Of a stretch of DNA of 64,000 nucleotides, positions 1 to 56,692 are shown piece by piece. The notes under the pieces are model-generated. The model ran no database searches, was not told where the DNA came from, and saw only the letters and a program-made list of their open reading frames with translations. This stretch comes from a virus: positions 5,499-69,498 of IMG/VR virus record IMGVR_UViG_3300026116_000004; one strand, written 5' to 3'. The first letter of the stretch is position 1, and the number at the start of each line of letters is the position of its first letter. The position numbers were made by a program, and so were the translations under genes.

Positions 1-447
1 AATGGCGATATAGTGAAACCCAGTTCTAAGAGCAAATTCCCAGAACCTCGCACGATCGTCATTCTTCAGATATGTGTTAATCTCATGAATAACTGAAGAC
101 AGGATCAGACAACACTTATGGTCATCATCCATTGCCTCAATGCATTGCTCTAAGATAAACTCCCAATCGGAAGAGAACACTGCATTAGGTAACTCCATGC
201 CCATAGCATCTTCGATCATATCCGCATTAGCATCAAACCCAAAGAACTTAGCATCAGGGTAGATTTCAGAGAGATAATAGATCATCGAGCCATCAGCACA
301 ACCAAAGTCAAAGAAGACTTTAGCGTCTTTAATCACTTTCGTGAAATAGAGTTTGTCCTTCATCCCCAAGTGCATCTTGTGATTGTAATTCTCCAAGTTC
401 ACTATCGGGACTTCCGTTATCGTTGGCGAAGTCTCTAAGCCAGCCAT
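1..447 (-). CDS. Class I SAM-dependent methyltransferase (runs off the window; not in ORF track)
   Basis: Manual translation from ATG 447 (start could be GTG 402 or ATG 375) gives ...KVFFDFGCADGSMI...FFGFD...LILSSVIHE..., i.e. motif I DxGxxxG, an acidic motif II and an SSVxHE motif; the frame is open to position 1. Confidence 0.8.
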   Translation of the reverse strand, partial: MAGLETSPTITEVPIVNLENYNHKMHLGMKDKLYFTKVIKDAKVFFDFGCADGSMIYYLSEIYPDAKFFGFDANADMIEDAMGMELPNAVFSSDWEFILEQCIEAMDDDHKCCLILSSVIHEINTYLKNDDRARFWEFALRTGFHYIAI

Positions 448-634
448 AGATGTCATCCTGGTTTTCGTAATCGAGTTTGAGTTCTTCGACACTCTCTTTG
501 CATTCTTTGCAGAGCGAGTAATGTTCATTCGTCGGGTCGGGATAGAAACCATCTTCACAGAAATCTCCTGCATTTGTTTCTATCTCTTTGTCATCCACTT
601 TATTGCAAATAACGCATCTAAACTTCTCGGACAT
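329..634 (-). CDS. Small putative zinc-binding protein
   Basis: CVIC...CKEC pairs; AAGGA RBS upstream; 3' end overlaps the methyltransferase. Confidence 0.55.
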   Translation of the reverse strand: MSEKFRCVICNKVDDKEIETNAGDFCEDGFYPDPTNEHYSLCKECKESVEELKLDYENQDDIYGWLRDFANDNGSPDSELGELQSQDALGDEGQTLFHESD

Positions 635-648
635 TCGCCCTGTTCCTT

Positions 649-780
649 ACTATAGAGTTCTTTTACTCATAGAGTACTAACTCTAAGAGTATAACTATTA
701 GGTTATTAAGTAATATTACTCATAGAGTTATAACCCCTATAGTAAGATAATCTTTACTACAGAGTTATAACTCATAGAGT
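649..780. repeat. Array of ACTC-N3-GAGT palindromes in an AT-rich intergenic region
   Basis: ACTCATAGAGT at 665, 718, 770; ACTCTAAGAGT at 680; variants ACTATAGAGT 649 and ACTACAGAGT 756. Confidence 0.85.
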
Positions 781-799
781 ATAAAACCTATAGATATTA

Positions 800-828
800 A
801 TTATATATGATTTATAACTATTTGTCAA
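800..828 (-). promoter_or_regulatory. Consensus sigma70 promoter
   Basis: TTGACA (828-823), 17-nt spacer, TATAAT (805-800). Confidence 0.9.
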
Positions 829-848
829 GTGTAAAATATGGTTGGTAA

Positions 849-1604
849 TCAGTGGATGTCATCGTTGGATAGAAGTGTGTCCCTATGACCCATTAAGTAC
901 TCGTATTTAGCCTCTTCAGATACTGGTTCAGCAGCCATTCTCAAGACTTTATCCATTGCTGCCTTCCTACGTCTGAAAGCAGTTCCAGGCTCTTGGTCAG
1001 CCCCTACAATTGAGCTAGGAGTGATGTAGTCGTAGAAGTCCATTCCACTGATCTTTCTCCTACTTGGGTACTGACAAGAAGGATAAGTACTCATGTCCTT
1101 GTCCTTCCAGTAGTCATCGATAGCGACGTAGATGAACGCCTCTGTCCATGGCATACCCTTGTAGTATAACCCATCTGAAGGGGATTGGTCTTCAACAGAA
1201 ATCTTGACTTTAATTCGTCTAGCCTTCTGACCAAGACAGAACTGACGATCCATCAAATGGATTATCTCAGCATTTACGTAGTAAAGTTCACCACGCATAC
1301 GCTGTCTGATCACCTCTGACGCACCAACAACGAATACTACCGGATGGAGAGCATAATGTCTCTTGAGGATATAATGGGGAGACATCGTGTGTGCCGCTCC
1401 ACAGTACTCAGCCCCATCCAATAATCTATGGTTTGACCCACCATCTTTCTCTGTAGTCAATGCAAGATAAGGGATACGAGTATACCACTTGAGTTCATGA
1501 AAGTCCGGTGTGATATCTCCCCTATCGTACAGAGGACCATAGATAGAACCTTGGTAATCAGGAAGGTTCTCACCCTTCGGTCTAGCACTAACAATAGAAG
1601 CCAT
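849..1604 (-). CDS. Divergent gamma-glutamylcyclotransferase (AIG2/GGACT)-like protein
   Basis: LTTEKDGGSNHRLLDGAEYCGAAHT...RGELYYVNAEIIHLMDRQ aligns by eye with the GGACT pattern YGTLKxGxxNHxLL...GEVY...LDxLE; likely start MASIV at 1604. Confidence 0.6.
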   Translation of the reverse strand: MASIVSARPKGENLPDYQGSIYGPLYDRGDITPDFHELKWYTRIPYLALTTEKDGGSNHRLLDGAEYCGAAHTMSPHYILKRHYALHPVVFVVGASEVIRQRMRGELYYVNAEIIHLMDRQFCLGQKARRIKVKISVEDQSPSDGLYYKGMPWTEAFIYVAIDDYWKDKDMSTYPSCQYPSRRKISGMDFYDYITPSSIVGADQEPGTAFRRRKAAMDKVLRMAAEPVSEEAKYEYLMGHRDTLLSNDDIH

Positions 1605-1605
1605 G

Positions 1606-2685
1606 TCATTCAACCTCTGCAAAGTTGTCAGGTAACTTATCAACAGTGATATTGCCGTTCTTGAAATCTGCAATAAGTTTGCTTGCCTTTGCGAGTTTCG
1701 CCATCATCTTTTCATTCTTTTCACCAATTCTCTTCATAGCGTCTGTAGCATAGAAGAGTAAGCAAGGAAGGTCTTGAGGTTCAGACCTACGAATGAAATC
1801 TTCCCACTCAATATGAGTGACATTCGCGAGTTCCTGCCAACCATTGTCGTTGTAGATATCCCAATCTTCCAACAGATGTAACATCGCCTCAGACAATTGG
1901 AACTTGTTCTTGAATGGCATGGAGATCAGCGGCGATAGCTCTTTCGTAGAAGCTCTCGCGGTGGGAACACGAACGACTGAATTATTCTTCGCACGCGCCT
2001 CTTCCTCTCTTTTCTTCCTTTCCGCATCCAACCTCTCCTTTTCAGGACCACGCTGAACGGTGTTCCAATAATCATCGTTAGACGACTTGAAAGGTTGTCC
2101 TTGATCGAACGTCTTAGTGGACCAAGCTGCAGGAGAGAAGAAGTAAGGTTCCTGATCCGACGAGATAAGAAGACCTCTATTGTTCGACCCCGGCCAGAAC
2201 TTCTCCAAGATGTCTCTGACATACGGGTCTTCAAGATCAGCGATACCCCTTGTGCCCACTAAACGAGTGAGCATAGGTGTTAGCTGAAGTTCAGCATACC
2301 TACGGCTGTCAGATGCCCCCTGTAACGCCTCTGGATCGGTCTGCTGGCCCCTCCAAGCCTGCATGGTACCATTGTGCATGAAATACAACGAACGCTTCTT
2401 GGTGGACAGCACAGGGAACGGCTGGGTATTCGCCTCGTTAATTTCTCCTTCAGTTCTATGACGAAGATGAACAAAACGTTCAACATCCTCGTTATCCTTC
2501 AAAATCTTATAGATTTCTTGAGGATCACAAATCTTATCGTCAGAGTCCGAACAGCCCTTACGAACCTCAAGCTTTCCATTGGCCTTGAGGATAATGCCGT
2601 AACTATGCCAATTGTTGAACACACACGTCTCCAACTTCTCGTAAGGCAGAGTATAACCCGGCTGTTGAATAAAGATATTGCACAT
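1606..2685 (-). CDS. Class II (Ntn) glutamine amidotransferase
   Basis: True start MCNIF (catalytic Cys2) coupled by TAATG at 2685; HLRHRT, NTQPF, MHNG and SDS motifs. Confidence 0.85.
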   Translation of the reverse strand: MCNIFIQQPGYTLPYEKLETCVFNNWHSYGIILKANGKLEVRKGCSDSDDKICDPQEIYKILKDNEDVERFVHLRHRTEGEINEANTQPFPVLSTKKRSLYFMHNGTMQAWRGQQTDPEALQGASDSRRYAELQLTPMLTRLVGTRGIADLEDPYVRDILEKFWPGSNNRGLLISSDQEPYFFSPAAWSTKTFDQGQPFKSSNDDYWNTVQRGPEKERLDAERKKREEEARAKNNSVVRVPTARASTKELSPLISMPFKNKFQLSEAMLHLLEDWDIYNDNGWQELANVTHIEWEDFIRRSEPQDLPCLLFYATDAMKRIGEKNEKMMAKLAKASKLIADFKNGNITVDKLPDNFAEVE

Positions 2686-3071
2686 TACTTCGTTTCTTCC
2701 TTGCGCTCTAAAGACTTTTCCCAATCATCGTACGTTTTATATTCAGCTTTCGTATCTTTTTCCGTCCTAATGAGAGCCTTTGACCAGAGTTCAACAATAT
2801 TGTCTGTTTTCGATGAACGAAAGTAATCAACCTGCTTCCAACCATTGGTCCGGAGGATAGACTTCTCCTTTTCGTTGGTAGAAATGACAGTGCATAAAGC
2901 AAAATCATAACCGAACTTGCGAGCTGTGGTCAGTCTCTGTTCGTGTGCTACTTTACCACACCCTTTACCCCTGTTGTCTTTTGGTGTCCACACGTTGTGA
3001 AACACAGCAATCTGGTCACAGCCAGGTAACGAAGTGATCTCTGACACCACTCCTCCAACATTGTATCTCAT
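2685..3071 (-). CDS. GNAT-family acyltransferase
   Basis: RGKGCG acetyl-CoA loop; CTV...N...IL..NGW motif B. Confidence 0.75.
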   Translation of the reverse strand: MRYNVGGVVSEITSLPGCDQIAVFHNVWTPKDNRGKGCGKVAHEQRLTTARKFGYDFALCTVISTNEKEKSILRTNGWKQVDYFRSSKTDNIVELWSKALIRTEKDTKAEYKTYDDWEKSLERKEETK

Positions 3072-3838
3072 TGTGCTAAAGCCCTAGCATAGTTCTGAAC
3101 GGTAGTACCCGTAAGACCAGGTGCAGTATTAACCTCCAACACAAATGCCTTAACTCCCTTGCGCTTATCGTTATAAACGATGTCAACGGCACCGAAGTCA
3201 AGACCAGAATGTCTAATGGCCTCAATGGCGGCAGCTCTGACTTCATCTGGAGGGCGAATGTTTTCCCTCTGATAGATGAAACCATTTGCAAGGTTTCTGA
3301 TCTTCCAGTTGATGTCGTCACCACTGTCAGCCTTCTGCTTGGAGAGCACTTTACGCTGTTGGTCAATGATCTCGTTACCCACTACGTGAATACGATATTC
3401 TTCCGTCTTCTTTACGTATTCAGTATAAAGTGGAGCACGAACAAACCCATCAGGATGATCACGGTCCATAATAACAATACCGTTACCTGAATGACCATTA
3501 AGAACGGTACGAGCAACCACCACTTTGCCTTCTGCGCACCACCGGATGGCTTCTGCTTGGTCAGTCGTCCAGGGAGGAAGAATTTCATTGTTGCGTTCCG
3601 ACACCTTTCTAAAGAAGTCCAACTTGTTGGAAGCAATTCGGACAACTTCAGGCTTATTAATGATATTGCACTTTGCAACTTCAGGAGAAACTTGAGAAGA
3701 ACCCCAATTGATCACCCTCTTACGTTGTGATCCAACGAAACGAGAGTTTTCATTCTTGATTTTCGTGATACCCATTGCATCCTTGAGTGCAATAGCACCC
3801 TCAGAATGGGCATTCCATGAATAGATATAAGTAGGCAT
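3068..3838 (-). CDS. ATP-grasp peptide ligase (RimK-like, phage type)
   Basis: NKL, GHSGNGI, EYRIHV, DFGAVD and LEVNTAPG motifs. Confidence 0.9.
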   Translation of the reverse strand: MPTYIYSWNAHSEGAIALKDAMGITKIKNENSRFVGSQRKRVINWGSSQVSPEVAKCNIINKPEVVRIASNKLDFFRKVSERNNEILPPWTTDQAEAIRWCAEGKVVVARTVLNGHSGNGIVIMDRDHPDGFVRAPLYTEYVKKTEEYRIHVVGNEIIDQQRKVLSKQKADSGDDINWKIRNLANGFIYQRENIRPPDEVRAAAIEAIRHSGLDFGAVDIVYNDKRKGVKAFVLEVNTAPGLTGTTVQNYARALAQ

Positions 3839-5013
3839 TAGTCATTGTTTCTCCAAGGATCATTTACAACTGGCTGGTTTACCACACCACCAAGAATGTC
3901 ACCGCGTGCTTGACGAACAGGTATAGGACGAGCAGCTGCTCTTAAAGCTAAGTCTCTGATACGCTGCTCTTCCGCTTCCCAAGGGCGAATTGCTGCATCA
4001 CCATCGTCGAACTCAGCCTGAGGAATTTCTACATCGCCACCTTGACGAAGCACGGCGAGTTGTTCAATACCGCGCAGCTCTTCGAAAGGACGATTGTATA
4101 ACTGTCGGGCAATTGTGTCCAAGTCGGAAGACTTTACCTTCTTTGGTTTTTGGACAGCATCCAACTTGTCCCAACCCTTTGAGTCAGGAACTGATAACGC
4201 AATGTTAGCCGCATACCAGAAGTTATTCTCGATAAGTTTCGCTTCATCGTCAAACTTTAAGTTCTTTCTATACTTGCCAAAGATGTCCGTGAGTAGCTCT
4301 ACACCCTTGTCTTTGTAATTGTTGATGATATCCCCTGGATACATCTTGTCCTGACGAGAGAACTTGACAATCTCATGGAGAATACCAACCCAATCTTCAA
4401 TTTCCTTGATATCAGTCGTTCCTCTGAACGATCTTACTTCAAGAGAACCAAAGTTAGACAACGAATGAAGGTTCAACGCAGCATACTTAGTCAACTCACG
4501 GTCAAAGAGCATGTGTTGATAGTTCGGTTGTGATTTACCTTTCACTGTCGAAAGGTTCTTCAACATGTTAACAATGTTCTTGTAAGTCTCTTCTGCGTCA
4601 CACATAGGAAGACAAAACATGTTACCATTGCGTCCCTCACCTGAATACTTGATGAGTAGATTTTCAACGAGAGCGTATGTCGTTAAGAAGTTACCAAACG
4701 AAGGGAAACTCTCATTGAGCATGTTCACATGGACATGAACACTCGTTGTAATCGAATTTTTCTTGAAGTTAGCGTGAACTAACTTAGACTTGAACTCCTC
4801 AAGTGCCTGAGGGATCACATCGAAGTCCAGTGGTTGACGGAGTACGTACTCACGACCAAACCCACGGAGAGAACCATCTGCGTGAATATCCCAAAAGGCG
4901 AACTCGGGGATACGATACTCTGCATCGCTCTCCGTTTCGATCTCAAGACCGAACAAACCCTTATGTTTAGTAAAGGTTCGCCCAGTCTTTTCTAAAGCAT
5001 CACAAATCGACAT
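3838..5013 (-). CDS. Putative amidoligase (COOH-NH2 ligase, glutamine-synthetase-like fold)
   Basis: GLEIE, HADGSL, E, SVHVHVN, KYAALN and SLEVR motifs. Confidence 0.85.
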   Translation of the reverse strand: MSICDALEKTGRTFTKHKGLFGLEIETESDAEYRIPEFAFWDIHADGSLRGFGREYVLRQPLDFDVIPQALEEFKSKLVHANFKKNSITTSVHVHVNMLNESFPSFGNFLTTYALVENLLIKYSGEGRNGNMFCLPMCDAEETYKNIVNMLKNLSTVKGKSQPNYQHMLFDRELTKYAALNLHSLSNFGSLEVRSFRGTTDIKEIEDWVGILHEIVKFSRQDKMYPGDIINNYKDKGVELLTDIFGKYRKNLKFDDEAKLIENNFWYAANIALSVPDSKGWDKLDAVQKPKKVKSSDLDTIARQLYNRPFEELRGIEQLAVLRQGGDVEIPQAEFDDGDAAIRPWEAEEQRIRDLALRAAARPIPVRQARGDILGGVVNQPVVNDPWRNND

Positions 5014-5014
5014 T

Positions 5015-5692
5015 TCACTGAATATCCCAGGCTAATTCATGGGAAAGATAACGAGACACAATCCAACCCATGGCGTTGTTAGGAACTCTTACGAGCATTT
5101 CGTCAGGTGCGATCCACCCAACCCAACTGTCCTTGAAATACACATTGATGTTACCCATTGCATTAATGGACAAAGCAATGTTTCTAGAGACAGCCTTTTG
5201 ACAAATGATGTCTGCCTCTTTGAGGTTTACTACAGAAGTCTTGGAGTAAATACCCCTTAACTCCTTGATGGCGGAGTCGAGTGAAGGGTAGATTCCTTCA
5301 ACCATGTCTGCAAACTCTTTGGTGAAGAAGATGTTATCGACGTACTTCGCCCTACCCCCTCCATTACCCGTTGCAGACGAAATCCTGAGCGACCTTCCTT
5401 CGACACCTTGCTTTGTTCTCCTTGCAGGAATACGAGAGACGTAGACGACTTCTTTGCTATCCTTCTGGTTCATATAACCCAGAGGAAGGCTTGAAATGTC
5501 AAACTCTTCATCAGTTGACTTAATACGGAATTTGGCCTCCGCATTGGAACCCGCTCTGCAATCGTACAGATCGAGTTGTCCTTGCCTGTCCCTTACTCGA
5601 ACGTAAACTGGCGCACCCTTGTAACGACAAATAGTGCCATCGAGTTTCTGAGTAAGATCAACATCAGGAATTGTGCAGCGCATTGGCTTCAA
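5015..5692 (-). CDS. Hypothetical protein within the ligase cluster
   Basis: 225-aa ORF tightly packed between the two ligases; contains LPLGYMN...SRIPAR. Confidence 0.7.
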   Translation of the reverse strand: MKPMRCTIPDVDLTQKLDGTICRYKGAPVYVRVRDRQGQLDLYDCRAGSNAEAKFRIKSTDEEFDISSLPLGYMNQKDSKEVVYVSRIPARRTKQGVEGRSLRISSATGNGGGRAKYVDNIFFTKEFADMVEGIYPSLDSAIKELRGIYSKTSVVNLKEADIICQKAVSRNIALSINAMGNINVYFKDSWVGWIAPDEMLVRVPNNAMGWIVSRYLSHELAWDIQ

Positions 5693-6377
5693 TATCCTCC
5701 ATTCTCGAAATGATTGAACGATACATCATTCTACGGTCGTCTTCCTTTTCCACCCAGCGGGAGGAAGGGCTTCTAAGCTCAACTCCGTAGGTCTTAGGGC
5801 GAAACGAACTTTCTCCTCCGTAGTACCTGATGCGCTCGAACTCTTCAGGTGTAACCGGCTTGAAGTACGTCGCATTACGGAAGGACTTAGCGATATGTCT
5901 GCAGTCTTCAAAATGTGAAGGGTCAAAGGGATCGGCTCCTTCAGTCCACCCAAGATGCACGTGTCCCGCTGTCGTTCTGAATGGACGATGTTCGAGGTCT
6001 CCCGGAGGTGCTTTCTGCATTCCGGTTTCAGCAGAGTAGTCAGGATCGCAGCCAAGGATTTTGCTTTCTACTGGTAAGATGCTGAAGTACAGCGGATCGA
6101 ACCTAGCGATAGGAATGAAACGGAGCTTAAGGTCTCGATCAACCTTGTGAACCATTTCAGTCATCTGGTTAAGAACAGTAACAATGTTGTTATTGAACTC
6201 TTCTTCAGAATTAGCCGGCTCAATATTAAACTCAAGGGCCATACCGTCCACTTGGACAGCGCCCTTATCAACCTTGTGGGGTTCTTTCTTCGTCCCAGGG
6301 AACAAACCGTGGGCACTAATGAACTGTGCTCCATCATGAAGAAAAACTTCTGGGTCACAGCCGATAGTAACTTTCAT
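5664..6377 (-). CDS. phiEco32-like COOH-NH2 ligase type 2
   Basis: IGCDPE, DGMALE, GCDPD, RTTAGHVH and FRPKTYGVELR motifs. Confidence 0.9.
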   Translation of the reverse strand: MKVTIGCDPEVFLHDGAQFISAHGLFPGTKKEPHKVDKGAVQVDGMALEFNIEPANSEEEFNNNIVTVLNQMTEMVHKVDRDLKLRFIPIARFDPLYFSILPVESKILGCDPDYSAETGMQKAPPGDLEHRPFRTTAGHVHLGWTEGADPFDPSHFEDCRHIAKSFRNATYFKPVTPEEFERIRYYGGESSFRPKTYGVELRSPSSRWVEKEDDRRMMYRSIISRMEDIEANALHNS

Positions 6378-6378
6378 G

Positions 6379-7431
6379 CTAGTTCAAAGCCTTTCTACTG
6401 GTTAAATCGATCTCTAATTGCTTTTCTTTTTGATACTGTAACTCGTAACACTCTGCACAAGTATACACGTTCACAGGTTCTTCGTGACCCTTGTATTGGT
6501 CGTAAAGGTCCATTTCTTTCCTACAATTCCTGCAAATCTCAGGAAGAATTTCTCTACCTTTTGGAGTATTCTGCGTCAAGCGCAGAGGGGTCTCATTACT
6601 GTTTGACGGATAAGTACCCAAACGAGATTTGTTCCCTATAGGAATAACCTTCGCTCCTGCCGCTGGACCCCATACTGTTCTAGCCTCTAAGTTTGCTTGA
6701 AACCCGTAGAGAGGTTGCTTGTCCCAGTCAGGTTCTCTATTAGTTTCAATATCGTCTGGACCAAAACGATACACATAGTCAGGTTCGAACGCAGTGATCT
6801 CCTTGAGCTTCACACCATGCCGGGAAGCAGCGAACTGGATCATACGAGCTTCGCTAGCCCAGTAAAACACCTTGCGTTCTTTGTTGATTGCGTAAAACAG
6901 TGGTCTAGAAATTTCTCTCGTAAACACAAACTCAAAGTGTTTCTTTTCAAACGCAACTATCGCGTATGCACTCTTAGAAGAGAGACCACGGAGTACATTT
7001 TCAATACCACGCTTGTCCATGTCTTCGAACATCATTTCTGAGTCCGTTTTCGTGGAGTCTTTGTATTGATCATCTTTTAGAGTACCATTGTGCATGCCAA
7101 TGATATTGGTCTTTTCGAAAGGATGTGCGTTCTCTGCGTTCACAGCACCCATCGTTGCTGCTCTCACGTGAAGCGCCATGAACGTATCGTGTGTATCGTT
7201 CAGGATTTTGTTGTCAGCTTCCTTTGATGAAGTCTGATTGAACCAAAGAAAATAACCAACTTCGTGTTCATTCTTGAGGATGCGATACCGGCGCTTCTTT
7301 CCACTATGGTAACCTTGGAGAACGCCAGTGCCGTCAATCCCCCTTAGGCCCAGAACATAAGCGAGATCGCGCATCATACTTATATCTGATACGTTGATCC
7401 CTGGACCCATCATTCCTGCATGACCACACAT
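6379..7431 (-). CDS. Class II (Ntn) glutamine amidotransferase with C-terminal Cys cluster
   Basis: MCG start; RGIDGTG, HVRAAT, NAHPF, HNGTL, TDSE; CxxC...CxxC tail. Confidence 0.9.
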   Translation of the reverse strand: MCGHAGMMGPGINVSDISMMRDLAYVLGLRGIDGTGVLQGYHSGKKRRYRILKNEHEVGYFLWFNQTSSKEADNKILNDTHDTFMALHVRAATMGAVNAENAHPFEKTNIIGMHNGTLKDDQYKDSTKTDSEMMFEDMDKRGIENVLRGLSSKSAYAIVAFEKKHFEFVFTREISRPLFYAINKERKVFYWASEARMIQFAASRHGVKLKEITAFEPDYVYRFGPDDIETNREPDWDKQPLYGFQANLEARTVWGPAAGAKVIPIGNKSRLGTYPSNSNETPLRLTQNTPKGREILPEICRNCRKEMDLYDQYKGHEEPVNVYTCAECYELQYQKEKQLEIDLTSRKALN

Positions 7432-7441
7432 TCTATGCCTT

Positions 7442-8080
7442 TCAGTTGAACATTAGGTAGTCGATTAAGTTGAAGAAATAAGCTTGATTGCCACTGTTTT
7501 TGTTTTCAGACAACCAGTACTCAGGGTGAGGTTGATAACACAAAGACATCGTTTCCTTGTACCATACAACCTCCGTGTCGTACTTTGGTCTCTTTCTGCT
7601 CGCCTTTTTGCTCTCAAACTGTGTTGCACAATGGGCGACTGCGATAACAGTTCCTTCTTTCGAAGGGATCATCATCTGATGGTGTGTACTTGTGACAAAA
7701 ACAGTCTTCTTTGACAAAAGAAGGTCAAGCATCTGGTGACCACCAGTTAACCCATGGTTGTTAACGTGTTGCCACATAGAACCACCAGACATCACGTTGA
7801 GAAACTGTCCACCTCGACAAATACCCACCTTTGGGAGGGATCGGTATTTCTCAAAGATTTCCATTTCTTTGATGTCACGTTTCCAATTGTTGTGGGTTTT
7901 CTCATGGGGTTCCTCCTGGTAGAGTTCAGGACTTACATCCTCTCCACCAGTAAAACAAATAAGGTCAGCTTTTGTATCCTTATCGTTCTCATCAACCAAC
8001 TCCCACCCACGATTGAGAAACATCTTCTGAGTGGCTTGGGTTGGTAGGATGATTTTTACTTTTCTCTTAGTAGTTGACAT
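7442..8080 (-). CDS. Class I glutamine amidotransferase / peptidase C26 (PuuD-like gamma-glutamyl hydrolase)
   Basis: TGGEDV, GICRGGQ, STHHQ and QPHPE (Cys-His-Glu triad). Confidence 0.9.
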   Translation of the reverse strand: MSTTKRKVKIILPTQATQKMFLNRGWELVDENDKDTKADLICFTGGEDVSPELYQEEPHEKTHNNWKRDIKEMEIFEKYRSLPKVGICRGGQFLNVMSGGSMWQHVNNHGLTGGHQMLDLLLSKKTVFVTSTHHQMMIPSKEGTVIAVAHCATQFESKKASRKRPKYDTEVVWYKETMSLCYQPHPEYWLSENKNSGNQAYFFNLIDYLMFN

Positions 8081-8922
8081 ATTTCTTCCGCGCCGTTCAT
8101 TAAATCTTCAAGGGTTAACTCGTAGTATTGAGACCAATTTGAGTGTTTGAGCCTGCCCATCTTGCCAATAGCTTCCGCAATCTTATCGTATTGAGGAGGC
8201 TCCCAATAGATTTTATCCTCAAGGCAAAACACAGACATAGAGAAACTTGCGTCCATACGCATTTTGCCTTCATTGAAACCTTCAACATCGAACTTCTGTT
8301 GAGAAACAATCCAATGGTTGAAGTTACCGACATTACCTTTTCGGATATTTCCTGCCACATCCATACTAAATCTGGATACAATAAAAAGGGCATCACCAGG
8401 AGTAAGACCCTTTTCCATCAGTACCTTCCATAGTCTCATATGGGCAGGGAACTCACTGCAAGCCCTCATCGCAATCATCAAACACTTTGTGATGCTCTTG
8501 TTGTACTTTTCGATGAAGTCACTCGTTATCAAGAAGCCTGTTTGTTCTCCCTTGGCATTCTTAAAGAATTCAAATCCTTCTTCTGGTAAAATACTCTTGA
8601 AGGGACTCAAATCCTTATCCATCAAAAAGTCACACCAAGGCTGTGCGAATTCCTTATTTGACTCTTTGATTGGGCAGCAAGAACCGATAGCCATTGGCTT
8701 TCTATAGTTATCAGTCCAATGAGTAAAAACTGGAGCACTACATGGAGCAGCAGTTGACGATCCAATCCTTCCAGTATAACTACCGACAGATATCTGCATA
8801 CTTGTAGGATACTCAAAAAAGTATGTAGTTCTATCCTGATCAGCTGGCATTAAAACAATTTGGGAATAAAAATTTCTAGCTCTTTGGTAAGCTAGTTCTA
8901 ATTCTTCAGTCGTTGGTCTCAT
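8056..8922 (-). CDS. Hypothetical protein
   Basis: 288-aa ORF overlapping both neighbours in the operon. Confidence 0.7.
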   Translation of the reverse strand: MRPTTEELELAYQRARNFYSQIVLMPADQDRTTYFFEYPTSMQISVGSYTGRIGSSTAAPCSAPVFTHWTDNYRKPMAIGSCCPIKESNKEFAQPWCDFLMDKDLSPFKSILPEEGFEFFKNAKGEQTGFLITSDFIEKYNKSITKCLMIAMRACSEFPAHMRLWKVLMEKGLTPGDALFIVSRFSMDVAGNIRKGNVGNFNHWIVSQQKFDVEGFNEGKMRMDASFSMSVFCLEDKIYWEPPQYDKIAEAIGKMGRLKHSNWSQYYELTLEDLMNGAEEICQLLREK

Positions 8923-9538
8923 CGTGAGTGTCTAAAGCTCTTTTAACAATACGATAATTAATTGCTTTTGCTATCTCAGCATCGTTATGCCAGTAAGGAT
9001 CGTGATTAGGAAGATCAAAATTGAACTCTTCTTTAACCCACTCACGAAGCTTGGTACGTCCCTTTCGACGACCGTCCCCAAGGGTAAGAAAGCTCCTTAC
9101 AGACTCAACTGTAACCCTCTTAAGGCCAGCTTCTTCGAGTACTTTAAGTCGCTTAAGTCTCTCCTCTTCCTTGGCCTTCGCAGCAGCCTTACGAGCTTCC
9201 ATTTGCTTACGGACTTGTTCTGCCCTCTTTTCTCTATAAGGAGCAAGACCAACGTTCAGATCATGGTCAGAAGCCGCATAACAACTAAGTGGTTCATCAC
9301 CATACTTTTCGTCATGTGTAGTAGGTGTTTTCTTGAAGCCAATAGCCTCAAGATATTCTGCTTCCTTATCTTGTTCATCGTTTAAAAGCACTACATTTAT
9401 ACGTGAATAACCGTGGTCAATAATTGCGTAAGCAAAGTCTTCAACGCTTTTGTAGCGAGGATAGCCGTGTGCATAGCCAACGTTATAAAAATTAGCAGAT
9501 GCACAACAACCAGCAATAGAACCTCTAGATAATGCCAT
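8906..9538 (-). CDS. Hypothetical protein, degenerate GNAT-like N-terminal domain
   Basis: AGCC...FYNV; VVLLNDEQ...YLEAIGFKK; AAGGA RBS. Confidence 0.6.
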   Translation of the reverse strand: MALSRGSIAGCCASANFYNVGYAHGYPRYKSVEDFAYAIIDHGYSRINVVLLNDEQDKEAEYLEAIGFKKTPTTHDEKYGDEPLSCYAASDHDLNVGLAPYREKRAEQVRKQMEARKAAAKAKEEERLKRLKVLEEAGLKRVTVESVRSFLTLGDGRRKGRTKLREWVKEEFNFDLPNHDPYWHNDAEIAKAINYRIVKRALDTHDETND

Positions 9539-9558
9539 TTTTCCTTTAAATCCTTTAG

Positions 9559-10158
9559 TTACCTTCTAGCGAAGGGATTAACAATTTCAGTACCAAATAT
9601 TTCATTAGCAATAGGTTGTAAAATAGGTCTAATGTCTCTGTGAAAATCTCCTATCCACGTAATACACTGATGGTCAGAACGACCTCTTTCTTCGGGAGTA
9701 CCAAACTTTGATGTTTCTGCCGCCTTCTTGAAACCAGAATTCTCAAACATTTCGACTGCGTGAGTTTCATTATGGTTTGTAACAGCAACAATTGAACCAA
9801 CAGCAACCCACTGTGCACTTACAGGTGACTTGAGACAATGCACTAAGAGTTGCTGATTAAGTCTCAGGTTCGAGGTAATGTACTGCGAGCTTTCTTTTTG
9901 TATTTGGGTACGTAGTTTATGTCTGTTTTCACCCCACATTTCTGTAGAAGACAGATGAGAATTAAGGCTATCCGTGATATGAGCCTGGTAGACTTCCTCG
10001 TCTGAATACTTGTTTTTCATTTTTAAACGAAGGGGCTCTCCAGGTACACTTTCTCTGATAACATTACCGTACTGATCGTAGGCATAAACTATGGGAGTAT
10101 TATACACTCCGAGCAACAATCTGCCACCACAGAACAGAGGAAAAAGACACATGCGCAT
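9559..10158 (-). CDS. Hypothetical protein, degenerate GNAT-like
   Basis: FPLFCGG; IVAVTNHNE...MFENSGFKK. Confidence 0.6.
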   Translation of the reverse strand: MRMCLFPLFCGGRLLLGVYNTPIVYAYDQYGNVIRESVPGEPLRLKMKNKYSDEEVYQAHITDSLNSHLSSTEMWGENRHKLRTQIQKESSQYITSNLRLNQQLLVHCLKSPVSAQWVAVGSIVAVTNHNETHAVEMFENSGFKKAAETSKFGTPEERGRSDHQCITWIGDFHRDIRPILQPIANEIFGTEIVNPFARR

Positions 10159-10160
10159 GA

Positions 10161-10376
10161 TTAACAGGCCCTTATTTTGTCTTCGTCGAACGAAGGGATT
10201 TCGAAAATAGTATATTCTTCTTGCTTCATTTCTGGCATCTTACGGTGCTTACACACAGCCGCATGATACGAATTGAATAAACAAGAAACAGCTCGTCGGC
10301 CACTGTAGATTTGTTTCAGAGCCTGAACTGCGTGCCAATCGCTACGAGCGATTATCCATTTTTCTGCCGTTGCCAT
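10161..10376 (-). CDS. Hypothetical protein
   Basis: ORF tiling in the operon. Confidence 0.6.
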   Translation of the reverse strand: MATAEKWIIARSDWHAVQALKQIYSGRRAVSCLFNSYHAAVCKHRKMPEMKQEEYTIFEIPSFDEDKIRAC

Positions 10377-10377
10377 G

Positions 10378-10719
10378 TTAGTCTTTCACAGTGTATTCAA
10401 TTTCAATCCAATCAATGATTTCGTAGCAATGTAGCATGTCAAAGTGCTCTTTGTTCACGTAAGACTTGCCACTTATGAAAGGCATTGTGTTTTTAGCAGT
10501 TTTATACTTTAAAATAGGTATCCATGCTTTGAGAACAATAGGTTCTTTGTATTCAATCCAATATGTCTTTGCGTCATCTAAACGCAATCTATCTGAGTGA
10601 AAGTGTCCATCAGAGCCTACCCACCAGATAAGAACTGTTTGTTGGTGAATTTTAGCTACTGTCCAATGACTAGCAGAGTTTAGTGATGTGTACTCTTTAC
10701 CTTCAAGGATTTCAGTCAT
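10378..10719 (-). CDS. Hypothetical protein
   Basis: ATGA overlap with the upstream gene. Confidence 0.65.
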   Translation of the reverse strand: MTEILEGKEYTSLNSASHWTVAKIHQQTVLIWWVGSDGHFHSDRLRLDDAKTYWIEYKEPIVLKAWIPILKYKTAKNTMPFISGKSYVNKEHFDMLHCYEIIDWIEIEYTVKD

Positions 10720-11114
10720 CTTACCACTCTACCCTGCCACAAATGGCATCCATTTTCATTTACACCACATTCGGACATTTCTGTGTAGGGGAAGTGTTTA
10801 CCTCCCACATACATAGAAACTTCTAGTGGTTCTTCTTGGTTTCCAAGGACATAGGCTTTTACCACCTTTCGATGGTACATATAGCCTTCCCCTTCGAGAC
10901 GATCCAAACGAGCGAGAGTAGCATCATTGTCGCCAATGTCCCACACCTCTCCTATCGCTTTACTGTTTTCGTCTTCCTTGGCTACAGGAAAGCCATACTG
11001 GTAGAGTTTAAACCCCTCGACAACAGCGTCACCTATCTTTCTATGAGCACCTTCTGATAGGATGTAGTTATTGCCGTACCCACTTTTCAGTGTTCCATAA
11101 ACAAAAACTTTCAC
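10716..11114 (-). CDS. Gamma-glutamylcyclotransferase (AIG2/GGACT family)
   Basis: VFVYGTLK, GEVW, LDRLEG, YHR. Confidence 0.92.
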   Translation of the reverse strand: MKVFVYGTLKSGYGNNYILSEGAHRKIGDAVVEGFKLYQYGFPVAKEDENSKAIGEVWDIGDNDATLARLDRLEGEGYMYHRKVVKAYVLGNQEEPLEVSMYVGGKHFPYTEMSECGVNENGCHLWQGRVVR

Positions 11115-11344
11115 AGTTCCCTTCTTTTCCAGTTCACAGTTTGGACATTTAGAGGTTCAAAAATCTCTCCCGTTAAGGTGTAAATTGGCCCATAAGCACC
11201 TCTACCACGGGCTTCCGAATGGTGTCCATCTTGAGCCTCCGAGAGTGTATTAAACACACTAAAAATAGAGACATCGTCTCCTATGTATACCATTCTACCG
11301 TACTTCATGAGAATAACTCCAACCATTTGACATACAACCAGCAT
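11111..11344 (-). CDS. Hypothetical protein
   Basis: GTGA overlap with the GGCT gene; start uncertain. Confidence 0.5.
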   Translation of the reverse strand: MLVVCQMVGVILMKYGRMVYIGDDVSIFSVFNTLSEAQDGHHSEARGRGAYGPIYTLTGEIFEPLNVQTVNWKRREL

Positions 11345-11436
11345 CCAACACCTACAATGGTGCCAATGCCGAGTACACAGATGACACTAGTTGCAAATAT
11401 GCCACTCATGGTATCCTCTTTGATTTGAAGTGAATT

Positions 11437-11521
11437 TGGTGCCCACGGTCGGACTCGAACCGACACGCCTTACGACAAGGGATTTTAAGTCCCTCGCGCC
11501 TACCAATTACGCCACGTGGGC
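11437..11521 (-). tRNA. tRNA-Leu (anticodon UAA)
   Basis: GCCCACG acceptor stem, AGGGA-CTTAAAA-TCCCT anticodon arm, long variable arm, GGTTCGAGTCC T arm, encoded CCA. Confidence 0.97.
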
Positions 11522-11528
11522 CGGTTTC

Positions 11529-12149: not shown

Positions 12150-12683
12150 TTAAAGTTCTACGTTGAGGTTACCCTTCTTCAGGTAATATTCCTTGCCACC
12201 CTGGAGCCATTCCTCCAAGCGTTGCTGATAGTCTGCCTGGTCAACAAACCCACCTGCAACACGAGGAACGTCTCTGTTAGCATTGATGATATCTTCGATA
12301 CGATCCCAATCGGGTTCAGTATAGGAACCACGCTCAATGGTCTCGTATGGTCTTCCACGTTCAAAGCCGAGCGCAATCAAATGGTGACGCGCTTCCACTC
12401 GTACTTCGTTCTTTCGTCTGTGCTGAAGGCCCCAGAACGTGTCCATCGACTCTTTGATGAACTTTTCAGTATTCCCAGCTTCACGAACCTTTATCACCTT
12501 CACAGATGGCTCAGGAGGCTTAGGAGGCTCCACGCCCTTGGCGTGCTTCTTGCTATACCAGCATCTTAATGTCCTTGCGTTTGCAAGGTGGTGTCGTTCG
12601 GCCAAGCGGACCAACGTGCTCTCATGCGCAAGAGCAGCGATCCTTACGGTAAGAAGTGTCTTTTTCATGTTACTGTTTCCCAT
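12150..12683 (-). CDS. Hypothetical phage protein
   Basis: 177-aa ORF; EARHHLIALGFERGRPYETIE segment. Confidence 0.7.
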   Translation of the reverse strand: MGNSNMKKTLLTVRIAALAHESTLVRLAERHHLANARTLRCWYSKKHAKGVEPPKPPEPSVKVIKVREAGNTEKFIKESMDTFWGLQHRRKNEVRVEARHHLIALGFERGRPYETIERGSYTEPDWDRIEDIINANRDVPRVAGGFVDQADYQQRLEEWLQGGKEYYLKKGNLNVEL

Positions 12684-13110
12684 GGTTTTGGATCAATTCA
12701 GACGCATCACCCTTGAAGTCAATGTCAGGGAGAATTGTCTGAGGTTTGAAGACCACGCGATAGTGATATGTGCTCACATCTGCAGTCTCCATCTGTTCAG
12801 CAAAGTAAGTCACGTTGTCAGACAGACCAAGAAAGTTCTTTTTGTATGCGTTTGGTCCCGTCTTGCATGTGACAGTTACTTCACGAGCAGCGTCGTGGTT
12901 CCCAAGAGAACACAATCCCTCCATAGAGAGCATGTATTCACCTGTGATACCATTGTAGAATACGATGCGACGTTCAATCTCGAAGTTGTCAGCCGCAGTG
13001 GACAGGTTCTTTGATGCAATATCCGCATCGTTACAACCCACAAGAAGAGCACCAATGGTAAACACCATGGCGCAAAAGAGCTTCTTCTTTTTTTCTTTAG
13101 AAGACATCAT
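12670..13110 (-). CDS. Phage lipoprotein
   Basis: Basic N-terminus, hydrophobic stretch, lipobox LVGC; ASKNLS..ADNFE..RRIVFYNGIT segment. Confidence 0.8.
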   Translation of the reverse strand: MMSSKEKKKKLFCAMVFTIGALLVGCNDADIASKNLSTAADNFEIERRIVFYNGITGEYMLSMEGLCSLGNHDAAREVTVTCKTGPNAYKKNFLGLSDNVTYFAEQMETADVSTYHYRVVFKPQTILPDIDFKGDASELIQNHGKQ

Positions 13111-13298
13111 TCCCTCGCGATAGCAACGTAGATTGCAGCAAAGAAAACAACAATCCAACTAACAGGCCAAAAGAAAGCCCACGTGAGGCACCATAAGGGC
13201 CTTGCTTGGCCACGAGTTCTACTATCGTCCAACGCAAAAATAGCAAACGACACACAGAACATGACTATGTAGTGCCAAATACCAATTGCGGTTTCCAT
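13107..13298 (-). CDS. Small membrane protein
   Basis: Two hydrophobic segments; GGAGG RBS. Confidence 0.65.
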   Translation of the reverse strand: METAIGIWHYIVMFCVSFAIFALDDSRTRGQARPLWCLTWAFFWPVSWIVVFFAAIYVAIARE

Positions 13299-22275: not shown

Positions 22276-24216
22276 ATGGTTGATGAGACAACGAGGCTAG
22301 ACGATGAGTTACTGCAGAAGTATCCTGAACGTCCTAGACTCACGCGCATCCCGTACGGATATTGTAAGAAAGTAGGTGATCCTGATCTCCTCGTCCCTGA
22401 TCCGGTTGTGATCCCACTCCTAGAGTCAGCCTTAGATCAGTTAGACGCAGGTATCTCACTCCGGGTAGTTGTGGAGTGGTTGAATGCAGCTACCCCAGAC
22501 GGTGTAGAAATATCTCACCAAGGACTATCAAAGATCAGGCGTTACTATAGACCTGACTTTGTACGCAAACAAGTTAAACCAAAGACAGTACGTAAACTCA
22601 CTCACGCAGAGTTGCTTGAGAAGAGACGTAAACACAAGATCGCTCAAGAGAAGAAGCGATTAACTAATACTAAGAAACGCATTGCTAAGCACCAAGAAGA
22701 AATCGATATCATTCGTGGTAACGATAAAGATGTTAAGTCTGATACTTCGTTATTACTAGAGATCGACTATGGTGCAGAAGAGTTTAAAGAGATTGACCAA
22801 GAAGTTGAGGTTGTATTTAAACCTAACCCTGGTCCACAGACTGCTTTCTTCCAAGCTTCTGAAAGAGAAGTACTCTACGGAGGCGCGGCAGGTGGTGGTA
22901 AGTCTTATGCTCTTATTGCTGACCCTATGCGTTATTTTGATAACAAGCATTTTAGGGGGTTGATCCTTCGTCGTACGAATGATGAACTGCGTGAGCTTAT
23001 TTGGAAGTCACAAGAACTCTATAAGCAAATCTGGCCCAAGGCTGAATGGCGCGAGAAAGATAAAGAGTGGCGCTTTCCCTCTGGGGCTAGACTATGGATG
23101 ACTTATCTCGAAAGAGAAGAAGATGTTCTTCGTTACCAAGGTCAGGCTTTTACTTATATTGGTTTCGATGAACTAACACAGTATCCTACCCCTCACGCTT
23201 GGGATTACATGCGTTCTCGTCTCCGTGATGCTTCAGGTACTTTACCTTTATACATGAGAGCCACTTCTAACCCCGGTGGCCCAGGTCATGGTTGGGTAAA
23301 GAAGATGTTTATTGATCCCGCGCCTTATGGTAAAGCATTCGATGCTCGTAACCTAGAGACTAATGAAGTCTTATTGGTTCCAGAAGATGATGAAGACTTT
23401 CCTAGGGAGCGTTGGGGCAAGCCTCTATTCCAAAGGAGATTTATTCCTGCCAAGCTTTCAGACAACCCACATCTTGCCAAAGGTGGAGAATACAAATCTA
23501 ATCTTCTCTCTCTTAGGGAAGACTTACAAAGACAGTTGCTAGATGGCGACTGGGATGTGGCCGATGGGGCTGCTTTCTCAGAGTTTAGAGCCAAAATCCA
23601 CGTCGTGGAACCCTTTGAGATACCTACCAACTGGAAGAGATTCAGAAGCTGTGACTTTGGTTACAGCACAAGACAAGCCTCCGCAGTCCATTGGTTTGCT
23701 ATCCACCCCACCACTAATCAGCTAATCGTTTATAGAGAACTCTACGTTAACCAGAAGACTGGTAAAGAGTTAGCTAAAATGGTTCTCGACTTAGAGAAAC
23801 ACGAGACGATTATGTATGGCGTACTCGATAGCTCAGTTTGGTCCGTAAGAGGACAGACCGGCCCGAGTATTGCAGAAGAAATGATTAGGGCTGGTTGTAG
23901 ATGGCGTCCATCTGATCGTTCTCAAGGGTCGCGTATTGCTTCTAAGAATAGACTCCATGAACTCCTTCGCGTAGACCCATTTAATGGTTTACCGGGTATC
24001 GTATTTTTCAACACGTGTCGTCAGATCATCGCCGACCTCCCAATCATACCATCCGATAAGGACTCCGATGACATTGACCCCAAATACGCTACTGACCACG
24101 CTTATGACTCCATTCGTTATGGCATTCAGTCCAGACCTAAGGGTGGATATGATGGTCTTTCAATTAAACATGATAGCTCATCGTGGCGTCCAGCTCATTC
24201 GGCCTTTGGTTACTAA
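22276..24216 (+). CDS. Terminase large subunit with a ~175-aa N-terminal DNA-binding-like extension
   Basis: GGAAGGGKS Walker A, GFDE Walker B, ATSNPGG, DFG and DHAYDSIRY nuclease motifs. Confidence 0.95.
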   Translation: MVDETTRLDDELLQKYPERPRLTRIPYGYCKKVGDPDLLVPDPVVIPLLESALDQLDAGISLRVVVEWLNAATPDGVEISHQGLSKIRRYYRPDFVRKQVKPKTVRKLTHAELLEKRRKHKIAQEKKRLTNTKKRIAKHQEEIDIIRGNDKDVKSDTSLLLEIDYGAEEFKEIDQEVEVVFKPNPGPQTAFFQASEREVLYGGAAGGGKSYALIADPMRYFDNKHFRGLILRRTNDELRELIWKSQELYKQIWPKAEWREKDKEWRFPSGARLWMTYLEREEDVLRYQGQAFTYIGFDELTQYPTPHAWDYMRSRLRDASGTLPLYMRATSNPGGPGHGWVKKMFIDPAPYGKAFDARNLETNEVLLVPEDDEDFPRERWGKPLFQRRFIPAKLSDNPHLAKGGEYKSNLLSLREDLQRQLLDGDWDVADGAAFSEFRAKIHVVEPFEIPTNWKRFRSCDFGYSTRQASAVHWFAIHPTTNQLIVYRELYVNQKTGKELAKMVLDLEKHETIMYGVLDSSVWSVRGQTGPSIAEEMIRAGCRWRPSDRSQGSRIASKNRLHELLRVDPFNGLPGIVFFNTCRQIIADLPIIPSDKDSDDIDPKYATDHAYDSIRYGIQSRPKGGYDGLSIKHDSSSWRPAHSAFGY

Positions 24217-24227
24217 GGAAACTGTTA

Positions 24228-56453: not shown

Positions 56454-56692
56454 ACTAATTCACTCTTTTTGAGAATTGCAATAGCAACTTTGCACTGTTC
56501 TATAGTTATGTCGTAGTCAAGAATAAACCCTTTTAATTCAACGATAGCGTCTTCATTTGACTTAATACTTCTAGTGTTATTCTCTTTCTGACTTTCGCAA
56601 AGTTTAATTTGTCTTTCTAGAGACTTAATTACTCTGTCAACGCCTTCCATGAGTAGTCTAACTCCTTGATATTTCCGATTGTATCCTGCCAC
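56450..56692 (-). CDS. Hypothetical coiled-coil protein
   Basis: Operon tiling; start uncertain. Confidence 0.5.
   Translation of the reverse strand: MAGYNRKYQGVRLLMEGVDRVIKSLERQIKLCESQKENNTRSIKSNEDAIVELKGFILDYDITIEQCKVAIAILKKSELV

Follow-up and report, generated by a model that had tools for sequence, protein, structure and literature searches.

Phages of the phiEco32, LUZ24, RIO-1 and PA11 type carry an amidoligase cassette that appears in the literature under the names "gamma-glutamyl amide" or "peptidoglycan modification" cassette. The underlying predictions reportedly go back to Iyer et al. 2009 and Hardies et al. 2013, to judge from the papers that cite them, and the former, as cited in two articles (PMC10580990; PMC11318856), are said to have used the cassettes of phiEco32 and LUZ24 as type examples. 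A module of this kind has already been described in the Sinorhizobium phage phiM6 (Brewer, 2018; PMC6256558), and the homologous cassette of Pseudoalteromonas phage HP1 is reported to be "expressed immediately" (Howard-Varona, 2020; PMC7082346). In the current study we analyzed 64,000 nucleotides of the viral record IMGVR_UViG_3300026116_000004 from IMG/VR (hereafter the window, meaning this whole stretch), in which a minus-strand operon at 849-11344 almost certainly represents another phage amidoligase cassette of the phiEco32/LUZ24/RIO-1/PA11 type.

The operon consists of 16 tightly packed, co-directional genes (Table 1), whose junctions vary between an overlap of 25 nt and a gap of 20 nt once three starts had been corrected. 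These are the starts of the second N-terminal nucleophile (Ntn) class-II glutamine amidotransferase (GATase), which at 2685 gives a protein beginning with MCNIF, of the GGCT-like protein (1604) and of a protein here called X (5683). Its identity is backed by family matches for seven enzyme genes, together with a sub-threshold match for the GGCT-like protein and the fold of the GNAT protein, and all the components by which the cassette is recognized were found in it: a COOH-NH2 ligase, an Amidoligase_2, a RimK-like ATP-grasp ligase, an Ntn GATase with an N-terminal Cys, GGCT and/or C26, and the operon layout. An earlier note on this DNA, made from the letters alone, had described a tightly coupled co-directional operon with these enzymes around a core of the phiEco32-like type; gene calls, family matches and the GNAT fold bear out the former, and the presence of the same genes in phiEco32 and LUZ24 bears out the latter. 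The second Ntn GATase had been read in the right frame but from the wrong start, the true ATG being at 2685.

In phiEco32 (gp88-gp77) and LUZ24 (gp14-gp22), the ligase, an X-like protein, the Amidoligase_2, the Ntn GATase, the ATP-grasp and the GGCT are all present. However, they follow one another in the order ligase, X, Amidoligase_2, Ntn GATase, ATP-grasp and GGCT, so that, unlike in the window, the Ntn gene stands after Amidoligase_2, and neither phage has the C26, the second Ntn or the GNAT of the window. Besides, the Ntn proteins of these two phages are longer than that of the window (510 residues in LUZ24 and 676 in phiEco32), with C-terminal parts that have no Pfam match, and two additional unknowns of 320-400 residues lie ahead of the ligase. 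The "seven-gene peptidoglycan modification cassette" of PA11, RIO-1, HP1 and CW02 (Zobellviridae and relatives) has its core in the same order as the window, and PA11 gp001 and gp004-008 are 29-47% identical to the core proteins of the window, although PA11 showed no match to the second Ntn, the long GGCT-like protein or the GNAT and has no GGCT annotated in the 15 kb examined.

The likeness goes further in phiM6 (MH700630, gp94 to gp70) and RHph_N3_19, where AIG2, unknowns, C26, Ntn, ligase, X, Amidoligase_2, ATP-grasp, second Ntn and long GGCT-like protein occur in the same order as in the window. phiM6 belongs to the same size class (68 kb) and its large terminase is about 51% identical to that of the window, but the cassette proteins of phiM6 and the RHph phages share only 23-55% identity with those of the window. 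Moreover, phiM6 differs by an HNH insertion and a series of small open reading frames (ORFs) that are paralogous, in having no homologue of the window GNAT by phmmer, in retaining in gp70 the GGCT Glu no longer present in the window protein, and in unknowns upstream of C26 that are not detectably like those of the window, except weakly for 8056-8922 and gp80 (phmmer 0.0012 in a 92-protein set). The paralogous ORFs of phiM6 number about twelve, are 70-110 residues long, lie between AIG2 and the core (positions 157-4152 of the locus as extracted, L001) and match one another at phmmer values of 1e-4 to 1e-9; a smaller set occurs in RHph_N3_19 (L002, positions 77-2472, 4910-5146 and 10732-10986), two of them within the cassette. 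No clear counterpart of these small ORFs was seen in the window.

The description of the cassette as expanded in the earlier note thus holds in comparison with phiEco32 and LUZ24, but not as a novelty, given that phiM6 and three Rhizobium phages (RHph_N3_19, N3_13 and I3_11) already carry the gene set of the window minus the GNAT. The extended set is therefore already public in phiM6 except for the GNAT, which is seen again in seven out of 80 uncultured relatives. The second Ntn GATase was found in only four of 50,697 phage records, namely phiM6 and the three Rhizobium phages, and is an add-on specific to the phiM6 lineage. Within the same collection, the ATP-grasp gene occurs in 315 records and C26 in 59.

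The conservation of the cassette was assessed in 80 IMG/VR loci retrieved with a COOH-NH2 ligase alignment pattern, which matched 90 stretches, 85 of them confirmed and the best 80 kept. This sample leans to PA11-/phiM6-like ligases, with LUZ24-/phiEco32-like ones left out, and some absences are due to the truncation of several loci at the ends of their contigs. The ligase, X and Amidoligase_2 genes are contiguous in 77/80 loci, and the commonest order, C26-Ntn-ligase-X-Amidoligase_2-ATP-grasp, occurs in half of the loci (40/80). These six genes (C26, Ntn GATase, COOH-NH2 ligase, X, Amidoligase_2 and ATP-grasp) are the core of the cassette. A comparison of synteny across phages, which the earlier note had suggested, showed the order to recur in phiM6, RHph_N3_19, PA11 and 77/80 IMG/VR loci, and because of this recurrence the arrangement is far from chance. 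Relatives of X were detected in 39 of the loci by tblastn and in 79 by a profile (HMM). By tblastn, the long GGCT-like protein has relatives in two loci, and the other unknowns of the window in zero to four loci each.

Among prokaryotes, represented by one genome for each of 185,579 species, the ligase pattern was found in only 12 loci, all of them in records of metagenome-assembled genomes (MAGs) with contigs of 2.5-68 kb, and the cassette therefore looks phage-restricted. One of these loci, a 67,886-bp contig in a Rhodovulum sulfidophilum MAG (L089, QFPW01000021.1), encodes a ligase 48% identical to that of the window and probably represents the genome of a related phage, not bacterial sequence.

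The intact enzymes of the operon, which belongs to a phage genome of lytic type, comprise three ATP-dependent ligases from three folds or families, three amidohydrolase domains with a Cys nucleophile and recognition of glutamine or gamma-glutamyl amides, and one gamma-glutamylamine cyclotransferase. The COOH-NH2 ligase is homologous to LUZ24 gp16 and phiEco32 gp86; it has no Pfam match at E<=0.01, has 2354 homologues, some of which carry PF14395, and keeps the invariant columns of the ligase alignment. Amidoligase_2 scores 32.8 bits (cut-off 22) with PF12224 and has a C-terminal tail that looks disordered. Both ligases retain Glu, His and Arg residues at the invariant columns of their respective alignments. 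The ATP-grasp protein, 24-63% identical to the ATP-grasp of 79/80 loci, reaches 21.4 bits with Pfam RimK, against a cut-off of 21, and falls below the curated equivalog models (PRK10446, 21.4 bits against 331; rimK_fam, 30 against 143.4); it is RimK-like in fold and family but, going by these scores, not an orthologue of RimK, the ribosomal protein S6 glutamate ligase. When the ATP-grasp and the two ligases were compared with PDB sequences by phmmer, nothing meaningful was returned.

Of the hydrolytic enzymes, AIG2/GGACT (10716-11114) matches its family with 73.2 bits (cut-off 22.8) and has the YGTL motif and the Glu of LDRLEG in alignment. C26 scores 65.9 bits (cut-off 20.5) in Pfam and contains the motifs GICRGGQ and HPE, which hold the Cys-His-Glu triad of C26/class-I GATases. 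In NCBIfam it comes closest to the models for gamma-glutamyl-CDP-amidate hydrolase and PuuD, staying far under the cut-off of each. The first Ntn GATase begins with MCGHAG and scores 46.3 bits with GATase_6 (cut-off 27), and both Ntn domains have a Cys right after the initiator Met as well as HNG and DSE/SDS motifs; these motifs, like those of C26 and GGACT, are catalytic hallmarks of their families and are intact here. The C-terminal 50 residues of the first Ntn protein (6379-7431) carry a zinc-ribbon-like CxxC-21-CxxC pattern, and it has no synthase domain.

The same pairings of ligase and hydrolase are found in pathways in which a gamma-glutamyl group serves as a handle: in butirosin (BtrJ/BtrG), putrescine (PuuA/PuuD) and ergothioneine (EgtA/EgtC) metabolism, a ligase makes a gamma-glutamyl amide that a GGCT, C26 or Ntn enzyme removes. 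All three enzyme pairings of these pathways have their like in the cassette. The enzymes are nevertheless not orthologous, with NCBIfam scores of window proteins far below the cut-offs (20 bits against 266 for PuuD and 19.7 against 218.65 for EgtC), and the carrier protein, decarboxylase and oxidase partners of the handle pathways are not present in the window cassette.

For the co-occurrence of hydrolases we considered the 54 loci with full flanks, that is, at least 5 kb upstream and at least 6 kb downstream of the COOH-NH2 ligase. C26 is present in 53/54, a GGCT-family ORF in 26/54, both in 25/54 and neither in 0/54, while any GGCT-family ORF occurs in 29/80 loci overall. A strict alternation of C26 or GGCT was rejected, as 25 of the 54 loci have both. 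To our knowledge, GGCT enzymes act only on gamma-glutamyl amines. Since every full-flank locus keeps C26 or GGCT, enzymes whose action is wholly or mainly on gamma-glutamyl amines, and the LUZ24/phiEco32 types have GGCT instead of C26, the pathway probably passes via a removable gamma-glutamyl amide.

On these grounds we tentatively propose, as a plausible reading that still falls short of being probable, that the cassette may encode an early cytoplasmic pathway by which a small molecule, or else a precursor of the cell wall, would acquire amide bonds via a gamma-glutamyl intermediate. The three ATP-dependent ligases (the COOH-NH2 ligase, the X-Amidoligase_2 pair and the ATP-grasp) would form amide bonds in the cytoplasm, on a substrate that may be a small molecule derived from the host or a precursor of the wall. 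At least one of the bonds formed would be a gamma-glutamyl amide, later cut by C26 and/or GGACT, such that the gamma-glutamyl group would serve as a transient handle or carrier. For their part, the Ntn domains may supply ammonia from glutamine to a ligase, or may cut the gamma-glutamyl amide in the manner of EgtC, and X could be a target-selecting or regulatory subunit of Amidoligase_2.

Several points weigh against this proposal. No product, substrate or phenotype of any copy of the cassette was found in the literature, where searches gave predictions only, in line with the earlier note's remark that no product had been identified, and none can be derived from the sequence. C26 and the Ntn domains could all be plain glutaminases that provide the ligases with ammonia, and if so no gamma-glutamyl intermediate would be needed. 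GGCT is absent from 28/54 full-flank loci, and the likeness of the ATP-grasp to RimK and of the GNAT to RimI fits protein substrates as well. Finally, the predicted pairing of X with Amidoligase_2 described below is a model score, not a measurement. The earlier note's division of the enzymes into writers and erasers is weaker than presented there, the second GGCT-like protein being without the Glu and the Ntn and C26 enzymes being equally conceivable as ammonia donors. Taken as a whole, the interpretation in that note repeats a prediction already in the literature and is supported in part.

The literature has proposed a modification of peptidoglycan precursors, in which residues of the stem peptide would be added or amidated and the wall altered to block superinfection or to tune lysis. 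We regard this as possible though doubtful. The stem peptide does contain a gamma-D-glutamyl bond and free carboxylates, and in other bacteria these carboxylates are amidated by ligase-glutaminase pairs such as MurT/GatD; likewise, no cassette enzyme matched a secreted or membrane family in the general scans, which included no signal-peptide or transmembrane prediction. However, the proposal is purely predictive, the literature searches gave no muropeptide data, and the cassette is without a Mur-ligase or lipid II-related gene. In addition, the carriers are lytic and a block of superinfection by wall chemistry is unproven, and the same enzymes would suit many other carboxylate and amine substrates. 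The explanations considered here overlap, and a wall precursor could itself be the substrate of the gamma-glutamyl pathway.

Protein X, which belongs to no named family, is a protein of 222 residues encoded between the COOH-NH2 ligase and Amidoligase_2. A profile search of 1.84 billion cluster representatives (clustered at 50% identity) gave 2757 matches at E<=0.001, 1116 at <=1e-10 and 157 at <=1e-30, with lengths of 151-245 residues among the 150 matches listed. The profile also finds phiM6 gp75, the RHph orthologue, PA11 gp006 and phiEco32 gp85 (5.2e-05 for gp85 in the 92-protein set), and gp85 in turn matches LUZ24 gp17 at about 2e-04 in the same set. The AF2 model of X (pLDDT 91.6, pTM 0.87) has an SH3/Tudor-like N-terminal barrel and an alpha/beta C-terminal part. 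No solved structure matched it in Foldseek at E<=0.001, and the best VIA score, Z 5.0 with an rmsd of 2.9 across 56 aligned residues, was to Tudor/SH3-like barrels and confined to residues 1-96; naming the family of X from this match was dropped, the score being too weak and the C-terminal half barely covered. BFVD returned 11 matches at E<=0.001, of which the five labeled ones are uncharacterized phage proteins and the others unnamed.

In a three-chain model comprising the COOH-NH2 ligase, residues 1-290 of Amidoligase_2 and X as the partner, X obtained an ipSAE of 0.61 (the median of 0.69, 0.61 and 0.51), compared with 0.01 for the best of three controls. The ipSAE mark is reached by 58/80 solved complexes and 2/110 mismatched pairs, and is rough in this setting of custom alignments and three chains. 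The runs had at least 56% of their contacts in common, with a partner pLDDT of at least 78, and when Amidoligase_2 was swapped for an unrelated protein the score of X fell to 0.01. All confident contacts are between X (residues 1, 4-5, 64-65, 83-94, 184-185 and 204-215) and Amidoligase_2 (residues 88, 127-143, 173-178 and 230-276), and the X loop 83-94 holds four of the 15 near-invariant positions of X (R84, P86, R88 and Q92). An interface between X and the COOH-NH2 ligase received no support in the three-chain run, which is not evidence against such binding. X is thus likely, by this model, to be a dedicated partner of Amidoligase_2. A role as a carrier protein of the LysW kind was set aside, X having no conserved acidic C-terminus.

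The protein encoded at 2685-3071 has 128 residues and no match to a Pfam GNAT family even at E<=5, and NCBIfam ArsN1a aligns with its residues 26-86 at 25.8 bits against a cut-off of 170. Its AF2 model, built from eight sequences (pLDDT 83.1), has the usual N-terminal helices missing and matched 138 solved chains at Foldseek E<=0.001, with a probability of 1.00 and a TMq of 0.58-0.65 at the top. The matches listed on top are acetyltransferases, nearly all named GNATs and led by RimI, HP0935, ArsN and Ard1, and the sequence contains RGKGCG, which fits the R/Q-x-x-G-x-G/A motif of the acyl-CoA-binding beta4-alpha3 loop of GNATs. By its modeled fold and motif, the protein is a true, though truncated, GNAT. 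A tblastn search against all phage records gave no match; in the seven IMG/VR loci with relatives, the position of the gene within the cassette varies, and the GNAT is a floating accessory of the cassette.

The long GGCT-like protein was aligned with 14 others (phiM6 gp70, the RHph orthologue and 12 from IMG/VR), with the window GGACT and LUZ24 gp22 as references. The Glu of LDxxEG is kept in 9/15 of these proteins and replaced in 6/15, by Phe in the window and elsewhere by Leu, Gln and, three times, Met. At the places where the family has LDxxEG and YGxL, hallmarks of GGCT/AIG2 with the catalytic Glu in the former, the window protein reads MDRQFCLG and YLAL. It is probably a degenerate paralogue of the fold family, for which activity as a cyclotransferase would be improbable, and it is not countable as an eraser because its catalytic Glu is replaced by Phe.

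These proteins bear directly on the earlier note's idea of a reversible protein tag, by which the ATP-grasp and the other ligases would attach glutamate or a peptide to some protein of the host or phage, the tag being removable by C26 and GGCT and acetylated by the GNAT. The closest curated models of the ATP-grasp in NCBIfam are MptN, the RimK family and the ATP-grasp maturases of ribosomally synthesized and post-translationally modified peptides, but all these matches lie far below the curated cut-offs, as in the case of the RimK equivalog. Similarly, the top fold matches of the GNAT include the protein N-acetyltransferases RimI, HP0935 and Ard1, although as fold matches they are generic. X does not look like an enzyme and is modeled on Amidoligase_2 through its most conserved loop, which would suit an acceptor or adaptor; however, it has no conserved acidic C-terminal tail or Lys, its last residue being variable and the Lys ahead of Q92 giving way to Val in two of five aligned sequences. 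With the second GGCT-like "eraser" lacking the catalytic Glu as well, we consider protein tagging unlikely, even if the sequence data presented here do not by themselves tell a small-molecule pathway apart from reversible tagging of a protein.

The number of hydrolytic enzymes suggests a further explanation, namely a counter-defense or host-takeover metabolism in which a gamma-glutamyl compound or amine of the host (glutathione, gamma-glutamyl-polyamines or a signaling molecule) is depleted or converted. Three to four of the cassette enzymes would cleave gamma-glutamyl or glutamine amide bonds, the accessory content differs between lineages, as is usual for conflict genes, and immediate expression is reported for the cassette of HP1 (PMC7082346). 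Nevertheless, the ligases are kept more strictly (80, 80 and 79 of 80 loci) than the hydrolases (C26 in 71, any GGCT in 29), which points to synthesis, and no known anti-defense family appeared in the Pfam, PHROG and NCBIfam scans, PADLOC not having been run. This explanation seems quite improbable to us.

The limits of the operon are better defined on one side than on the other. Its 3' flank is a 275-nt gap, ahead of a methyltransferase-like gene, with a sigma-70-type site that matches the consensus at 12/12 positions (TTGACA-17-TATAAT, 828-800 on the minus strand). It is the sole 12/12 match in 14 kb, the total number of sites in the region being no higher than in shuffled sequences, and the 3' boundary is supported because the gap holds this perfect site. 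The 5' boundary is not fixed; a 184-nt gap lies at 11345-11528. The Pfam and PHROG scans assigned no family to any of the six ORFs so marked in Table 1. For the 288-residue ORF, tblastn against phage records gave no match and a search for related IMG/VR loci with the ORF as query gave no relative, and ESM Atlas gave no usable match either for this ORF or for X, the Atlas models being poor (pLDDT 0.35 and 0.49, respectively).

Table 1. Genes of the amidoligase operon and the adjoining promoter-like site (window coordinates; "loci" are the IMG/VR loci).
Feature	Position	Strand	Basis and remarks
77-aa ORF, no family	11111..11344	-	Possibly first operon gene, 4-nt overlap with next; operon membership uncertain
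AIG2/GGACT gamma-glutamyl(amine) cyclotransferase	10716..11114	-	Pfam PF06094 3.6e-20; phrog_2520 3.7e-14
113-aa ORF, no family	10378..10719	-	Relatives in 0/80 loci
71-aa ORF, no family	10161..10376	-	Family scans
199-aa ORF, no family, lineage-specific	9559..10158	-	Relatives in 2/80 loci
210-aa ORF, no family, lineage-specific, Lys/Glu-rich middle	8906..9538	-	Relative in 1/80 loci (L009, 36% identity)
288-aa ORF, no family	8056..8922	-	Weak positional counterpart of phiM6 gp80; weak matches in 4/80 loci
Peptidase C26 / class-I GATase-fold gamma-glutamyl amide hydrolase	7442..8080	-	Pfam 5.7e-18; phrog_7218 4.5e-47; 71/80 loci
Ntn class-II glutamine amidotransferase a (first)	6379..7431	-	GATase_6 5.3e-12; 76/80 loci
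phiEco32-type COOH-NH2 ligase	5664..6377	-	phrog_3815 5.7e-56
Protein X, function unassigned	5015..5683	-	phrog_11055 4.4e-17; 79/80 loci
Amidoligase_2 (GS-like ATP-dependent carboxylate-amine ligase)	3838..5013	-	PF12224 8.3e-08; phrog_7469 3.6e-44; 80/80 loci
RimK-like ATP-grasp ligase	3068..3838	-	phrog_2599 3.3e-82; Pfam RimK 2.1e-04; 79/80 loci
Minimal GNAT-fold protein	2685..3071	-	Fold and motif; NCBIfam ArsN1a 7.4e-06; 7/80 loci
Second Ntn class-II GATase (MCNIF)	1606..2685	-	GATase_4 7.1e-06; 13/80 loci
Long GGCT-like protein, Phe at catalytic Glu position	849..1604	-	Pfam GGACT 0.0043, below cut-off; phiM6 gp70 7.1e-09
Sigma-70-type promoter-like site	800..828	-	12/12 match; starts next unit (methyltransferase-like gene, then primase/helicase)

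The assembly that carries the operon is circular, with a 99-bp overlap of its ends and a genome of 69,498 bp, of which the window represents bases 5499-69498. Genes of a tailed phage are found in the window (large terminase, 22276-24216; portal, 24183-26405; major head protein, 31220-32278), and the nearest named relatives, by terminase and ATP-grasp at about 50-57% identity, are Sinorhizobium phage phiM6, the Rhizobium phages RHph_N3_19, N3_13 and I3_11, Roseobacter CRP phages and Puniceispirillum phage HMO-2011. The phage collection contains no near-identical record, and a megablast of the 11.2-kb region against phage records gave a single 72-bp match; near-identical DNA does occur in rhizosphere and soil metagenome runs, with no RNA run listed. 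The carrier is an uncultured phiM6-like podophage of about 69.4 kb from rhizosphere and soil.

The cassette lies just upstream of the primase/helicase in this genome (2601-4148 in genome coordinates) and in all five reference phages. This fixed place raises the idea that the cassette hypermodifies phage DNA or nucleotides, and it does adjoin replication and nucleotide-metabolism genes in the window genome, phiM6, PA11, LUZ24 and phiEco32, with a thymidylate synthase and a ribonucleotide reductase also encoded in the genome. However, the position may merely reflect a common arm of early and middle genes, and the Pfam and PHROG scans revealed no base-modifying transferase, kinase or glycosylase-type family in the operon; we therefore judge this explanation very improbable. 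The replication arm in the window includes the ribonucleotide reductase (53626-55581), the thymidylate synthase (56629-57330), a metallophosphoesterase (59779-60543), a Cas4-like exonuclease (61399-62259) and a DNA polymerase fragment (63111-63794) at the contig end, whose gene may run on across the circular junction. At the other end, a methyltransferase-like gene occupies window positions 1-573 and extends in the genome to 318 residues. Upstream of the cassette, a minus-strand gene at 12670-13158 encodes a 162-residue protein matching Pfam Phage_VG64 (1.1e-53) and phrog_478, annotated as a recombination directionality factor, a protein of that kind being present though no integrase has been seen so far in the genome.

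As far as the literature was searched, the cassette is among the most widespread phage enzyme sets without a known product, and its chemistry has only been predicted since 2009. The copy in the window, coming from an uncultured phage, is no more testable than those of LUZ24, phiEco32, PA11 or phiM6. What the comparison sharpens is the parts list: a six-gene core in fixed order, X as a likely partner of Amidoligase_2, at least one cleaver of gamma-glutamyl amines in 54/54 full-flank loci, and the GNAT, the second Ntn domain and the pseudo-GGCT as optional parts. Taken jointly, these parts would also allow a bolder and, in our estimation, unlikely reading, in which X and Amidoligase_2 would form a phage-only two-subunit ligase whose near-invariant X loop (R84, P86, R88 and Q92) would choose the target or serve as the acceptor, the GGCT-like protein without Glu would act as a gamma-glutamyl "reader", and the cassette would early install, and later strip, a gamma-glutamyl-linked modification on a host target. 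If true, this would represent a new kind of phage takeover chemistry and not a variant of wall amidation.

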